Positions 1 to 4,872 of a stretch of 4,982 nt of DNA are shown one piece after another (within the stretch, counting starts at the first letter, position 1; every line of letters starts with the position of its first letter). The stretch lies in the sequence record PZ049717.1, one strand, 5' to 3'. The notes beneath the pieces were generated by a model. It was not told the DNA's origin. It saw only the letters and a program-made list of their open reading frames with translations, and ran no database searches. Both the position numbers and the translations under genes were made by a program. The DNA is from a phage.

Positions 1-1815
1 CAGCGCTGTGGTGAAGTGATCGGCGTGCTCAGCCTGCAGCACAGCGGCAAGCCACGGGCCTGGCATGCCGACGAAATCGCCTTCGCCGGTGAACTGGCCG
101 ATCAGTACGCGCAGGTACTGGCCAACCAGCAGCGCCTGAGTGCCACCCACATGCTCGGCCTGTTCCAGCGCGCAGTGGAGCAGAGCGCCAGCGCCTTCAT
201 CCTGGTGGACCGGGACGGTCGCGTGGAGTACGTGAACCCTGCCTTCACCGCCATCAGCCAATTCTCCGAGTCCGAAGTGCGCGGTCAGCGCCTGGCCGAT
301 CTCAAGGCTCTGGAAAACCTCGGAGAGCTGCTGTTCGACACCTCGTCGGTACTCGCCCACAGCAACAGCTGGCAGGGCGAGTTTCGCTCAAGGCGCAAGA
401 ATCTGGAGCCCTACTGGGGGCAGCTGTCGATCTCGAAGGTCTTCAACGACGACGGCATGCTCACCCACTACATCGGCATCTACGAGGACATCACCCGCAG
501 CAAGCTGGCCCATCAGCACATCGAGCGCCTGGCCTACACCGACAACCTGACCAACCTGGGCAATCGTCCTTTCTTCATCCGCAGTATCGAGGAGCGCTTC
601 GCCGCAGGCGCCGAGCCGAGGCTCTGCCTGCTGCTGGTGGACATCGACAACTTCAAGCGAATCAATGACAGCCTGGGCCACCAGACCGGCGACAAGCTGC
701 TTACCAGCCTCGCACGCCGGCTGCGCAACGGCCTCAGCCAGCAGAGCGTGCTGGCACGTTTCGCCAGCAACGAGTTCGCCCTGCTGTTCGATGACAAGGG
801 CCTGGAGGAAGGCATAAGACTGGCGGATCAGGTGCTGCGCATCCTCGACAAGCCACTGTTCGTCGACAAGCAGCTGATCAGCGTCAGCGGCTCGCTGGGA
901 CTGGCCTGCTCACCGCAACACGGGCGCGACCCGGAAACCCTGATGAAGCATGCCGGGCAGGCGCTGCACAAGGCCAAGGCGAACGGCAAGAACCAGGTGC
1001 AGATATTCACCGAAGCCCTGCATGCCGAGGCCAACTACAAGCTCTTCGTCGAGAACAATCTTCGCCGCGCGCTGCTGCAGAACGAGTTGGAGGTGTTCTA
1101 TCAGCCCAAGCTGTGCCTGCACACCGGTCGGCTGCAGGGGCTGGAGGCGCTGCTGCGCTGGAACCACCCGGAAAAAGGCATGATCCGCCCGGACCAGTTC
1201 ATCAGCGTCGCGGAAGAGACCGGGTTGATCATTCCGATCGGCAAATGGGTCGTTCGCGAAGCCTGCCGCATGGGCGTTACGCTGTCGGAACTGGGTCTGG
1301 GCAAACCCCAGATCGCCATCAACCTGTCACCCAAGCAGTTCTCCGACCCGGACCTGCTGAGCTCCATCGCGGCGATTTTGCTGGAGGAAAAGCTCCCCGC
1401 CGGGCAACTGGAACTGGAGCTGACCGAGAGCCTGCTGCTCGATGCCACCGAGGAAACCCGTCAACAGCTGATCGGCCTCAAGGCGCTGGGCCTGACCCTG
1501 GCCATGGACGATTTCGGCACCGGTTACTCCTCGCTCAGCTACCTGAAGAAATTCCCCATCGATGTGATCAAGATCGATCGCAGCTTCATCAAGGACATCC
1601 CTGACAACCAGGACGACGTGGAAATCACCTCGGCGGTGATCGCCATGGCGCGCAAGCTGCACCTCAAGGTCGTCGCCGAAGGCATCGAAACGCCGGAGCA
1701 GCTGAAGTTTCTCCGCCGACATCGTTGCGATATCGGCCAGGGCTATTTGTTCGACAAGCCGATCCCGGGCACCGGACTGACCGATGCCCTGCGCCGCTAC
1801 CCTCACTGGTGCTGA
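1..1815 (+). CDS. dipA: c-di-GMP phosphodiesterase, GAF-PAS-GGDEF(degenerate)-EAL architecture (DipA-like); 5'-partial, reading frame open from base 1
   Basis: Frame 1 is open from position 1 to TGA at 1813-1815; the GTG at 16 in the ORF track is not the real start. Translation shows the tail of a GAF domain (approx nt 1-140), a PAS-like segment (approx nt 160-510), and a GGDEF-like domain (approx nt 530-1010) whose signature is ASNEF (nt 763-777) instead of GG(D/E)EF and which ends ALHKAKANGKNQV. The EAL domain (approx nt 1050-1790) has the conserved motifs intact: EVFYQPK (EVF at nt 1090-1098), LLRWNHP, INLSP, ELELTES, DDFGTGYSSLSYL, KIDRSF, EGIETPEQ, QGYLF. High GC3 codon usage. Synteny with msrA supports the dipA (PA5017-like) name. 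Confidence 0.88.
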   Translation, partial: QRCGEVIGVLSLQHSGKPRAWHADEIAFAGELADQYAQVLANQQRLSATHMLGLFQRAVEQSASAFILVDRDGRVEYVNPAFTAISQFSESEVRGQRLADLKALENLGELLFDTSSVLAHSNSWQGEFRSRRKNLEPYWGQLSISKVFNDDGMLTHYIGIYEDITRSKLAHQHIERLAYTDNLTNLGNRPFFIRSIEERFAAGAEPRLCLLLVDIDNFKRINDSLGHQTGDKLLTSLARRLRNGLSQQSVLARFASNEFALLFDDKGLEEGIRLADQVLRILDKPLFVDKQLISVSGSLGLACSPQHGRDPETLMKHAGQALHKAKANGKNQVQIFTEALHAEANYKLFVENNLRRALLQNELEVFYQPKLCLHTGRLQGLEALLRWNHPEKGMIRPDQFISVAEETGLIIPIGKWVVREACRMGVTLSELGLGKPQIAINLSPKQFSDPDLLSSIAAILLEEKLPAGQLELELTESLLLDATEETRQQLIGLKALGLTLAMDDFGTGYSSLSYLKKFPIDVIKIDRSFIKDIPDNQDDVEITSAVIAMARKLHLKVVAEGIETPEQLKFLRRHRCDIGQGYLFDKPIPGTGLTDALRRYPHWC

Positions 1816-2640: not shown

Positions 2641-2662
2641 AAAAAACCCCGCCGAAGCGGGG
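2641..2662 (-). terminator. Rho-independent terminator read on the - strand (6-bp GC stem, UUCG tetraloop, U6 tail); possibly weakly bidirectional
   Basis: The + strand reads AAAAAA-CCCCGC-CGAA-GCGGGG. The reverse complement is CCCCGC-TTCG-GCGGGG-TTTTTTCTTTCT, a GC-rich perfect 6-bp stem with a TTCG loop followed by a T-tract. On the + strand the same hairpin sits ~80 nt after the msrA stop but is followed by CTCTGCAG, a poor U-tract. Confidence 0.65.
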
Positions 2663-2904
2663 CTCTGCAGACTGAATCCTGACATCCTTGATCGCGCGCC
2701 GTCCTGGCACCGCTCCCTGTGTGGTCCGTGTTGTTTGATCGCGCTTCCTGCGCCACATTCCTGATGCGAAAGATTACTGCCAGGCCTTGTGAGCCAGTAG
2801 TAGCCATTTTACATCACGCTTTGTAGCCTTTTCCTACACCGCGTCATCCATGATGCAGGGCTATAAGTCCAGGCTTACATTGCGCGAGTTTTATGACCTG
2901 AGGC

Positions 2905-2964
2905 CCGGCTTAATCGTTCCGCGTCATGGCCAAATAATTTCATATTGCCTTTAGATTAAGCCGG
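2905..2964. repeat. perfect 11-bp inverted repeat (CCGGCTTAATC ... GATTAAGCCGG) enclosing a 38-bp AT-rich core
   Basis: Left arm 2905-2915 is CCGGCTTAATC; right arm 2954-2964 is GATTAAGCCGG, its exact reverse complement. The intervening 2916-2953 is AT-rich (..CCAAATAATTTCATATTGCC..). It lies 8 nt from the acyl-CoA dehydrogenase stop (2972-2974). Confidence 0.6.
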
Positions 2965-2971
2965 CTCGACC

Positions 2972-4750
2972 TCAAAACTGTGCGGCATCCAGCAGGTAGA
3001 GCGACTCGCTGCCGGCCTTGACTGACGCCGTAAGCGAGTGGATGCGCGGCAACATCCGGGCAAAGTAGAAACGCGCCGTGCCCAGTTTGCTCTGATAGAA
3101 ATCGCCCTCGCCCTGCTTCGCCAATGCCACCGCTGCCATGCGCGCCCACATGTAGGCGTACGCGGTGTAGCCGAACACGTGCAGGTACTCGACCGAAGCG
3201 GCGCCGATCTCGTTCGGATTGGCCTTGGCCTGATCGATCACCCAGGCGGTCAGCTCGTCCAGATTGTCCAGCGCAGCCTTGAGGGGCTCGGTGAACTCGC
3301 GCAGATCCGCACCGGCACTGGCGATGAATGCGCGGATCTCATCGACGAACGCCTGATACATGGTGCCGCCGCTGCCGACAATCTTGCGTCCGACCAGATC
3401 CAGCGCCTGGATGCCGTTGGTGCCTTCGTAGATCTGGGTAATACGGCAATCGCGCACCAGTTGCTCCTGGCCCCATTCGCGAATGAAGCCGTGGCCGCCG
3501 AACACCTGCTGACCGTGCACAGTGGTTTCCAATCCCATGTCGGTGAGGAAGGCCTTGGCCACCGGCGTCAGCAGCGCAACTTGCGCCTCGGCCCGCTGCC
3601 GTGCCGCTTCGTCATCGCTGAACTTGGCGATATCGAGCTGCAGCGCGACGTAGCTGGAAAACGCACGCCCACCTTCGTTCAAGGCCTTCATGGTCAGCAG
3701 CATGCGCCGTACATCGGGATGCACGATGATGGGATCGGCGGCCTTGTCCTGCGCCACCGGGCCAGTCGGGGCACGGCTCTGGATGCGCTCGCGAGCGTAC
3801 TCGATGGCGCTCTGGTAGGAACGCTCGCCAGTGGCCAAGCCCTGGATACCGACGCCCAGACGCTCGTAGTTCATCATGGTGAACATCGCCGCCAGACCCT
3901 TGTTGGGTTCGCCGACCATCCAGCCGGTAGCGCCATCGAAGTTCATCACGCAGGTGGCGGAGGCCTGGATACCCATCTTGTGTTCGATCGATCCGCAGGA
4001 CAGCGAGTTGCGCTCGCCCAGCGAGCCGTCGTCGTTGACCAGAACCTTGGGCACCAGGAACAGGGAGATGCCGTGCGAACCGGCCGGCGCATCCGGCAGC
4101 TTGGCCAGTACCAGATGGATGATGTTGTCGGTCAGGTCGTGCTCGCCACCCGTGATGAAGATCTTGGTGCCACTGACCTTGTAGGAGCCATCGGCCTGCG
4201 GCTCGGCCTTGGTGCGGATGATGCCCAGATCGGTACCGGCATGCGGCTCGGTCAGGCACATGGAACCGGACCAGACGCCGGCGTACATGTTCGGCAGGTA
4301 CTTCTGCTTAAGCTCTTCGCTGGCATGGGCGTAGATCGACAAGCAGGCGCCGGACGTCAGCATCGGATACAGACCGAACGCCAGGCTGGCGGAGTTCATC
4401 ATTTCCTCCACCTGCGCCGAGATGACCTTGGGCATGCCCATGCCACCGAATGCCGGGTCACCACCGACACCCACCCAGCCACCTTCAGCGTACAGCTGAT
4501 AGGCCTCGCGATAGCCGGCCGGTGTCGACACCGCACCGTCGTCCCAGCGGCAACCCTCTTCGTCACCACTGCGATTGAGCGGGGCGATGCTGTTGGCGGT
4601 GATCTTGCCGGCCTCTTCGAGGATCGCGTCGGCGGTTTCCGCGTCGACCACCTCGGCCAGGGCTGGCAGCGCCTGCCAGAGCTTCGGCGCATCGAAGACT
4701 TCATTCAGGACAAAACGCATGTCGCGCAGCGGCGCTTGGTAGTCAGCCAT
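2972..4750 (-). CDS. large acyl-CoA dehydrogenase (~592 aa; long-type ACAD with C-terminal extension, FadE/DmdC-like family)
   Basis: Long - strand ORF with high GC3 bias. Preferred start is the ATG at 4750-4748, giving MADYQAPLRDMRFVLNEVFD..., preceded by GAGGAA (4758-4763) 7 nt upstream; the ORF-track start at 4786 adds 12 residues with no RBS. Contains the ACAD catalytic-base region ITQIYEGTNGIQ (YEGT motif), FAD/substrate-fold blocks (CLTEPHAGTDLG, GTKIFITGGEHD, FGGHGF) and a ~130-aa C-terminal extension typical of the ~600-aa ACAD subfamily. Stop TGA at 2974-2972. Confidence 0.92.
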   Translation of the reverse strand: MADYQAPLRDMRFVLNEVFDAPKLWQALPALAEVVDAETADAILEEAGKITANSIAPLNRSGDEEGCRWDDGAVSTPAGYREAYQLYAEGGWVGVGGDPAFGGMGMPKVISAQVEEMMNSASLAFGLYPMLTSGACLSIYAHASEELKQKYLPNMYAGVWSGSMCLTEPHAGTDLGIIRTKAEPQADGSYKVSGTKIFITGGEHDLTDNIIHLVLAKLPDAPAGSHGISLFLVPKVLVNDDGSLGERNSLSCGSIEHKMGIQASATCVMNFDGATGWMVGEPNKGLAAMFTMMNYERLGVGIQGLATGERSYQSAIEYARERIQSRAPTGPVAQDKAADPIIVHPDVRRMLLTMKALNEGGRAFSSYVALQLDIAKFSDDEAARQRAEAQVALLTPVAKAFLTDMGLETTVHGQQVFGGHGFIREWGQEQLVRDCRITQIYEGTNGIQALDLVGRKIVGSGGTMYQAFVDEIRAFIASAGADLREFTEPLKAALDNLDELTAWVIDQAKANPNEIGAASVEYLHVFGYTAYAYMWARMAAVALAKQGEGDFYQSKLGTARFYFARMLPRIHSLTASVKAGSESLYLLDAAQF

Positions 4751-4757
4751 GGCAAGG

Positions 4758-4763
4758 TTCCTC
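4758..4763 (-). promoter_or_regulatory. Shine-Dalgarno (GAGGAA) for the acyl-CoA dehydrogenase
   Basis: The - strand reads GCGAGGAACCTTGCC-ATG, with GAGGAA 7 nt upstream of the ATG at 4750. Confidence 0.55.
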
Positions 4764-4842
4764 GCAAGACACTGGGTTGCAGCCACTGTGGGCCGTTTCC
4801 AGCGAGTCTAACCGAACAACCAGTACAGGATTAAGCGTCTTT

Positions 4843-4872
4843 TTATGACCAGATAGTTTTTTGCGGTCATAA
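4843..4872. promoter_or_regulatory. candidate operator: perfect 8-bp inverted repeat TTATGACC-N14-GGTCATAA upstream of the acyl-CoA dehydrogenase
   Basis: TTATGACC at 4843-4850 and GGTCATAA at 4865-4872 are exact reverse complements separated by 14 nt (AGATAGTTTTTTGC). The site is about 95-120 nt upstream of the ATG at 4750, in the 138-bp gap after the upstream gene's stop (4889-4891). Neither strand has a T-tract after the stem, so it is not a typical terminator. Confidence 0.3.

Follow-up and report, generated by a model that had tools for sequence, protein, structure and literature searches.

A clade-specific inverted repeat around a conserved, putatively regulatory block between an acyl-CoA dehydrogenase gene and rsmY in Stutzerimonas stutzeri

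The promoters of GacA-dependent small RNAs (rsmX/Y/Z, csrB/C) combine an 18-bp upstream activating sequence (UAS), TGTAAGN6CTTACA, with auxiliary upstream factors. At rsmZ these factors are said to be IHF and PsrA in P. fluorescens and MvaT/MvaU in P. aeruginosa. Quasi-palindrome template-switch mutation turns an imperfect repeat into a perfect one by templated changes. AlgU/RpoE-type ECF promoters follow the pattern GAACTT-N16/17-TCNNA, examples being the algU and pslA promoters of Stutzerimonas stutzeri A1501 (PMC9141998).

In A1501, RsmY has been placed between PST_3857 and PST_3858 (PMC11332353). The A1501 rsmY promoter appears in the supplement of Shang et al. 2021 (PMC8249394) as 'PST3858 rsmY msrA ... 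CTCGCGCAATGTAAGCCTGGACTTATAGCCC...', and one sequence within it, that of GacA box 1 below, is marked as the putative GacA binding site, the sole site so marked (PMC8249394). The start reported from published 5'-RACE on A1501 is the rsmY +1 alone.

The window, which is the whole stretch of 4,982 nucleotides analysed here (PZ049717.1), belongs by its homologues to Stutzerimonas (Pseudomonas) stutzeri, close to strain A1501. At the A1501 locus (CP000304.1, L115) the repeat block is identical. Across the dehydrogenase region the two sequences differ by ~21 substitutions, and GacA box 2 differs by one indel, which makes the source of the window a close relative of A1501 and not A1501 itself. The A1501 promoter figure of PMC8249394 corresponds to the window sequence starting just 3' of the repeat.

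All elements of interest lie on the minus strand, in the order dehydrogenase stop, repeat, GacA box 1, degenerate GacA box 2, -10 element TAATCT and rsmY. The acyl-CoA dehydrogenase (CDS 4750-2972, within an ORF at 2972-4786) starts with ATG at 4750, encodes 592 aa with the Pfam domains Acyl-CoA_dh_N/M/1/C, is the orthologue of PST_3858 and ends in TGA at 2972..2974. The rsmY gene (2643..2762) is a full-length match to Rfam RF00195 (102 bits, E = 1.7e-24, against a gathering score of 57), which places it in the RsmY family; its intrinsic terminator was called by terminator scan at 2666-2643. A search of the window with all Rfam families at E <= 1 returned RsmY only and nothing on the repeat, which lies outside the rsmY gene. 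GacA box 1, the UAS (2862..2879, TGTAAGCCTGGACTTATA), has one mismatch to TGTAAGN6CTTACA, and box 2 (2822..2838, TGTAGGAAAAGGC-TACA) is degenerate through a 1-nt deletion relative to A1501 and perfect in other lineages. The -10 TAATCT (2771..2776) is read from the sequence, and TAATCT/TAGTCT is conserved at this position in the alignment. Since rsmY begins 140 nt beyond the repeat on the same strand, with a GacA box between, the repeat stands in the distal upstream region of rsmY. This context, with rsmY and its GacA box just downstream, was absent from the original prediction. No terminator was found between the dehydrogenase and rsmY genes in the window. On the opposite side, msrA (1918-2565) and a gene for a PAS-GGDEF-EAL protein converge on rsmY.

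Several smaller features surround rsmY. The PAS-GGDEF-EAL ORF (16-1815, plus strand) is truncated at the beginning of the window; the protein of relatives has 890 aa and N-terminal GAF domains. Stutzerimonas rsmY has two GacA boxes ~40 bp apart. The proximal one is perfect in most lineages, and in the window its deletion gives GGC-TACA against GGCTTACA in A1501; the distal one has a TATA variant common to the window and A1501, with TACA in most relatives. Between the boxes, nearly every lineage has a CsrA/RsmA-type CAnGGAnG motif (CATGGATG in the window; 2845-2852, minus strand), which lies upstream of the mapped RsmY +1. When the lineages are folded individually, its GGA falls in a hairpin loop in 12 of 13, with lineage-specific stems; the fold energies of this inter-box hairpin are not significant, and RNAalifold gives no consensus for it. 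The A1501 gene calls include a 34-aa ORF on the rsmY strand, running over the rsmY 3' end into the msrA spacer (2567-2671 of L115), and an MsrA of 245 aa from a long upstream start (L115 2687 onward), compared with 215 aa in other assemblies. Both calls look like annotation artefacts.

The repeat consists of two exactly reverse-complementary 11-bp arms, CCGGCTTAATC (2905-2915) and GATTAAGCCGG (2954-2964) on the plus strand, with a 38-nt spacer that is 60% A+T in a window of ~62% G+C. Because the dehydrogenase stop codon occupies 2974-2972, the first arm base is the 8th nucleotide past the stop, and in these coordinates the original prediction was accurate. Read on the minus strand, the stop-proximal arm (2954..2964) is CCGGCTTAATC and contains TTAAT(C), a motif semi-conserved across the genus. 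The loop follows (2916..2953), of which 2949-2916 is a genus-conserved core, and then the stop-distal arm (2905..2915, GATTAAGCCGG), inside the stretch separating GGAAC and GTCATA, which varies across the genus. An imperfect outer extension pairs TGAGG (2899-2903) with CCTCA (2970-2974) on the plus strand and overlaps the dehydrogenase stop codon; on the minus strand its half at 2899..2903 is CCTCA, opposite TGAGG (2974-2970), and it is polymorphic, without compensation.

Such a repeat had been called unlikely by chance in a 5-kb window, and this is overstated. In 2000 dinucleotide-preserving shuffles, a perfect inverted repeat with arms of 11 bp or more, no further than 60 nt apart, occurs in 11% of shuffled windows (0.16 expected per window, p ~0.11). 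In shuffles of the 406-bp intergenic region alone, the same criterion is reached in 0.6%.

The hairpin energy of the repeat is unusual for its composition. The RNA of the minus strand, the dehydrogenase sense strand, folds at -28.2 kcal/mol (z = -2.95), that of the plus strand at -26.5 kcal/mol (z = -3.7), and with DNA parameters z is -2.2. The repeat is no canonical intrinsic terminator, as had already been noted: the 11-bp stem has 6 G-C pairs, but its loop is 38 nt long compared with about 3-8 nt, no T/U run follows the stem (minus strand GCCTCAGGTCATAAAACTC, plus strand CTCGACCTCAAAACTG), and the terminator scan made no call at the site. Nor are the arms GacA boxes, since no match to TGTAAGN6CTTACA with <=4 mismatches overlaps them.

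Eighty species-level orthologous loci were fetched with the dehydrogenase protein, and the region downstream of the gene has three architectures among them. The P. fluorescens, P. putida and P. koreensis groups have the rsmY GacA box ~15 nt past the stop with nothing between. Where rsmY is missing (P. resinovorans, P. otitidis, Halopseudomonas and others), the stop is followed by a canonical GC hairpin and a T tract. An extra block of ~90 nt, separating the stop from the GacA boxes, is confined to Stutzerimonas-type loci.

The first two architectures have features of their own. In the P. fluorescens/putida/koreensis loci (L025-L079), the GacA box sits within an extended palindrome of up to 12 bp (ACGTCATGTAAG...CTTACATGACGT), and there is no intergenic terminator. 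In three rsmY-less Pseudomonas/Halopseudomonas loci (L015, L018, L021), the stem GCCCCGCTTCGGCGGGGC, ~20-45 nt past the stop, is the same as the rsmY terminator stem. This identity suggests either that rsmY was lost and left its terminator behind or that one terminator was shared by both genes.

The Stutzerimonas block was compared in 14 lineages (eight genomes, five metagenome contigs and the window), and its layout is constant: the stop, 12-25 nt usually with TTAAT(C), the core, 17-18 free nucleotides and GTCATA, followed by 12-13 nt, GacA box 1, GacA box 2 and rsmY. The core consensus is GGCAnnnTGAAATTAWTTnGCCAT-N5/6-GGAAC. In a 13-lineage alignment there are 26 invariant columns, mostly in the loop of the repeat, with GTCATA in addition. 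According to the alignment and a pattern scan, GGAAC (2916..2920, minus strand) is invariant and resembles the -35 element of the ECF/AlgU type; GTCATA (2892..2897, minus strand), 17-18 nt after GGAAC and part of GGTCATAAAA, is near-invariant and -10-like. The stop-distal arm occupies the free nucleotides between these two. Each of the 30 Stutzerimonas-type loci compared has the core, always as one copy directly past the dehydrogenase stop; 72 other Pseudomonas loci have none. Judged from these alignments, the 38-nt interior of the repeat is a genus-wide conserved DNA module. Invariant short blocks at fixed spacing, split by free sequence, are the signature typical of protein-binding DNA.

The locus resembles GacA-dependent small RNA promoters in that the repeat lies upstream of a bona fide rsmY with GacA boxes, and an AT-rich conserved block beside the boxes fits auxiliary protein binding. 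It differs in that the block is upstream of the boxes and not between box and promoter, is Stutzerimonas-specific, and matches no IHF, PsrA or GacA consensus. As far as the A1501 literature consulted for comparison shows, neither the Stutzerimonas block upstream of the GacA boxes nor the clade-specific repeat has been described.

The arms have a narrower distribution than the core. Perfect pairing is restricted to S. stutzeri proper, over 11 bp, and S. frequens, over 9 bp; in the same register 5 of 9 positions pair in S. azotifigens, 7/9 in S. nosocomialis, 9/9 in S. frequens and 11/11 in S. stutzeri. The original prediction was to fall if, besides a lack of other copies genome-wide, the arms were not conserved in related strains; they are conserved in S. 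stutzeri and S. frequens and not in the other species of the genus. S. frequens-type loci, with 97% nucleotide identity in the dehydrogenase gene, carry the perfect 9-bp repeat GGCTTAATC/GATTAAGCC and lack the outer stem. Compared with S. stutzeri, the arms of S. frequens are identical at 18 of 18 positions; the right flank agrees at 4 of 9, and directly outside each arm the sequence has diverged. The S. frequens fold shows no unusual stability (z = -0.5). In lineage L001 the same core is enclosed by another perfect 9-bp repeat, GGCACATTG/CAATGTGCC, again without unusual stability. This second repeat is also found at loci L098 and L099, and the metagenome variant L098 has a C to T change that in RNA would make a G-U pair.

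Within the species, ~45 S. stutzeri genomes show no substitution in 22 arm positions and one singleton 1-nt deletion. The same genomes have four variable sites in 17 flanking positions and two in the loop, and all four flank variants break the outer stem without compensation. That four changes should all fall in the flanks and none in the arms has a hypergeometric p of ~0.03, a pattern of invariant arms and variable flanks that suggests constraint. Neutral diversity in this sample is just ~10% per site (59/593 third codon positions; 8/77 positions of the rsmY-msrA spacer), so taken alone the within-species evidence on the arms is weak. The constraint may act on the sequence of the arms and not on their pairing.

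Evidence for a structure beyond the clade was sought in several ways. The complementarity of the arm flanks, as a trace of compensatory evolution, is not significant. Mapped onto the 13-lineage alignment, the window structure has 34.5% of its cells paired; the corresponding values are 32.6 +/- 1.7% for shuffles and 27-41% for slid controls. RNAalifold on the block recovers an invariant 3-bp GGC/GCC alone, with a covariation term of 0, and a conserved structured RNA was rejected on these grounds. Fold z-scores of the individual lineages range from -0.8 to +1.3, against -2.9 for the window. By all these comparisons, no hairpin structure is conserved across the genus.

The arms are probably young and lineage-specific, superimposed on an older conserved control block. 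The stop-proximal arm seems to reuse the older TTAATC motif, and the distal arm would have gained 9 bp of complementarity in the common ancestor of S. stutzeri and S. frequens, extended to 11 bp in S. stutzeri proper. Both steps are in part read directly from the present-day sequences and in part reconstructed from them.

The original prediction offered three functions for the repeat: a stem in the 3' UTR, a protein-binding palindrome, and the ends of a MITE/REP-like insertion. The first two are possible, and the third is wrong, since the interior and the proximal arm predate the repeat. The explanation preferred here is a tentative one, held with considerable doubt. It takes the repeat of the S. 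stutzeri clade as a non-canonical 3' stem-loop on the dehydrogenase transcript, shielding the rsmY control region. Its observed basis is the position of the repeat, its stability, the conservation of the arms at clade level and the lack of any other terminator between the two genes. The stepwise rise of pairing in one register also counts in its favour. Dehydrogenase transcription would read past the stop into the repeat, and the read-through RNA, with a predicted stability of -28 kcal/mol, might fold in vivo as a stem-loop 8 nt past the stop. The stem-loop would pause or end the dehydrogenase transcript and protect its 3' end, and it may thereby shield the rsmY control region from dehydrogenase read-through. 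It would thus stand in for the canonical terminator of rsmY-less relatives. The rsmY-less Pseudomonas lineages have that terminator at the same position past the stop, which indicates that transcripts normally end here.

In its stable stem close behind the stop, where rsmY-less relatives carry a terminator, the repeat is like terminators and 3' stabiliser stem-loops; it is unlike Rho-independent terminators in its 38-nt loop, in lacking a U tract and in the absence of the stem from most of the genus. Loop length and the missing U tract count against the stem-loop explanation itself, as does the lack of a genus-wide hairpin. So do fold z-scores near zero in every other lineage, including -0.5 in S. 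frequens with its 9-bp repeat, and the four population variants that break the outer stem without compensation. The P. fluorescens group, with its GacA box ~15 nt past the stop, manages with no insulator at all.

The repeat may alternatively have no function. It would then be a quasi-palindrome in a constrained block, perfected by chance or by template-switch mutation, and persist because the clade is young; this is somewhat unlikely, and several results speak for it. The shuffles produce such a repeat in 11% of windows, pairing is not conserved beyond the clade, compensatory changes are absent, the outer stem decays freely, and at ~10% neutral diversity, 0 changes in 22 arm positions are expected about 10% of the time. 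The separate perfect repeat of L001 at the same locus, stable to no unusual degree, fits as well. An imperfect 7/9 repeat as in S. nosocomialis, made perfect by changes that all run toward complementarity, is what template switching would leave; selection gives the same pattern. Against a functionless origin stand the invariance of the arms beside varying adjacent flanks (p ~0.03), the identity of the arms between S. stutzeri and S. frequens where the flanks are ~50% diverged, and the five substitutions, all toward pairing, needed from an S. nosocomialis-like state.

An operator acting at the DNA level is also unlikely. The arms would be an inverted recognition word (GGCTTAATC) around the core; a regulator acting on rsmY, and perhaps on the dehydrogenase gene, would bind them, and the clade would have gained sites. 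The proximal TTAAT(C) is conserved genus-wide without a pairing partner, so its function is independent of pairing. The arm sequence is conserved where the flanks diverge, and the distal arm with its flank resembles GacA box 1 at 11 of 15 positions. Two words recur in the window far more often than expected, GGTCATAAAA in two copies against 0.01 and GCTTAATC in three against 0.07, and both are found at the two ends of the dehydrogenase gene. The second GGTCATAAAA lies upstream of that gene, and the third GCTTAATC (4829..4836, minus strand) falls at the dehydrogenase -35 position and is clade-specific, other lineages having GCTTCGGG there. PmrA, whose half-site is CTTAAK, binds the rsmY promoter region in P. 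aeruginosa (EMSA). The geometry is less favourable: measured between their centres, the half-sites lie 49 bp or ~4.7 helical turns from each other, which puts them out of phase and is atypical for a dimer. No known consensus fits (the PmrA direct repeat, GacA box, IHF, Anr, PsrA and sigma-54 failed or were inconsistent), and most of the genus is without the distal site.

The region upstream of the dehydrogenase gene also has a symmetry of its own. In the window it contains an inverted repeat, TTATGACC-N14-GGTCATAA (4843-4872 and 4829-4850, minus strand). The equivalent in other lineages is xTGAC-N24-26-GTCAx', enclosing a conserved GAGAAC, and its outer base co-varies (ATGAC/GTCAT, GTGAC/GTCAC, CTGAC/GTCAG).

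The core itself could be a promoter. Nine consensus patterns were scanned on the block, and the AlgU/ECF type (GAACTT-N16/17-TCNNA), pointing to rsmY, was the one fitting all lineages, at the same position in 14/14; scans for IHF, Anr/Dnr, sigma-54, PsrA, PmrA, FliA and the GacA box gave no consistent match in the block. GAAC, the spacer and TCATA are present in every lineage, and the mismatches are always the two T's of the -35. The block is like AlgU/RpoE promoters in its (near-)invariant GGAAC and GTCATA, its 16/17-nt spacer and its direction, and unlike them in that the -35 TT is not conserved. Its -10-like GGTCATA resembles the A1501 algU promoter quoted in PMC9141998 (GAGAACTTTTGCGTAAAGCCCGGGTCTATTC; -10 GGGTCTAT). 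In 21.8 kb of a close relative, no GGAAC-N16-19-GTCATA was found beyond this one. The dehydrogenase upstream region has a related, genus-conserved element, GAGAAC-N5/6-GTCAT(T/A)(T/A)AAAGACGCTT. Its 6-nt spacing is impossible for a promoter and points to an operator, which speaks against a pure promoter reading and makes a transcription-factor site common to the two regions just as good an explanation.

An AlgU-like element here would start transcription at ~2885, just before GacA box 1. On that account the block would be a second, stress-sigma (AlgU/ECF) promoter giving a 5'-extended RsmY of ~240 nt, with the repeat as its insulator and a positive loop closed through AlgU, RsmY and RsmA; as a whole this proposal is quite improbable. 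If it were true, the 5' extension of RsmY would carry the extra RsmA-type CAnGGAnG (2852-2845), and the clade-specific repeat would insulate the upstream promoter from dehydrogenase read-through. RsmA represses algU translation in A1501 (PMC9141998), so AlgU would raise RsmY and RsmY would sequester RsmA in a positive loop. Neither this block nor a control of rsmY by AlgU was found in the literature.

A small protein gene is very improbable. The candidate is a 22-aa ORF (MKLFGHDAERLSRASGHKTRAM) that begins in the loop at ATG 2942-2940 behind an AGG-type Shine-Dalgarno sequence; its start is always ATG, TTG or GTG in the 14 lineages and its length is common to eight of them, but lengths run from 10 to 29 aa, the frame relative to GTCATA differs between groups, variable columns are spread 10/10/9 over codon positions 1/2/3 without a coding signature, and the shared stop lies within the GacA box. 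A MITE/REP-like insertion with the repeat as its ends is scarcely credible: it has the form alone in its favour (short terminal inverted repeats, AT-rich core, intergenic position), whereas comparison with orthologous loci lacking the repeat, which for an insertion would show an empty site, finds the interior and the proximal arm in place in all of them, so the repeat arose in place and was not inserted. The element is single-copy per locus in 134 loci (~1.3 Mb of related DNA), plasmids, phages and viral contigs gave no matches, and all five metagenome matches to the core are in dehydrogenase-rsmY context; the pattern of that metagenome scan, GGCANANTG..., differs from the variant of the window, GGCAATATG, and thus tested only other lineages.

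The Gac/Rsm cascade, which governs biofilm formation and nitrogen fixation in S. stutzeri A1501, has two output RNAs, of which RsmY is one; the GacA box is the only published cis element of the A1501 rsmY promoter. If the repeat is a mere 3' hairpin or a neutral quasi-palindrome, the finding is an ordinary one, and the conserved block is the more useful lead. The repeat and the words common to the dehydrogenase promoter raise the possibility of coupling between rsmY and the neighbouring fatty-acid gene. A genus-specific, strongly conserved block just upstream of the GacA box implies a regulatory input to rsmY that has gone unrecognised, which may be a sigma factor or a transcription factor.
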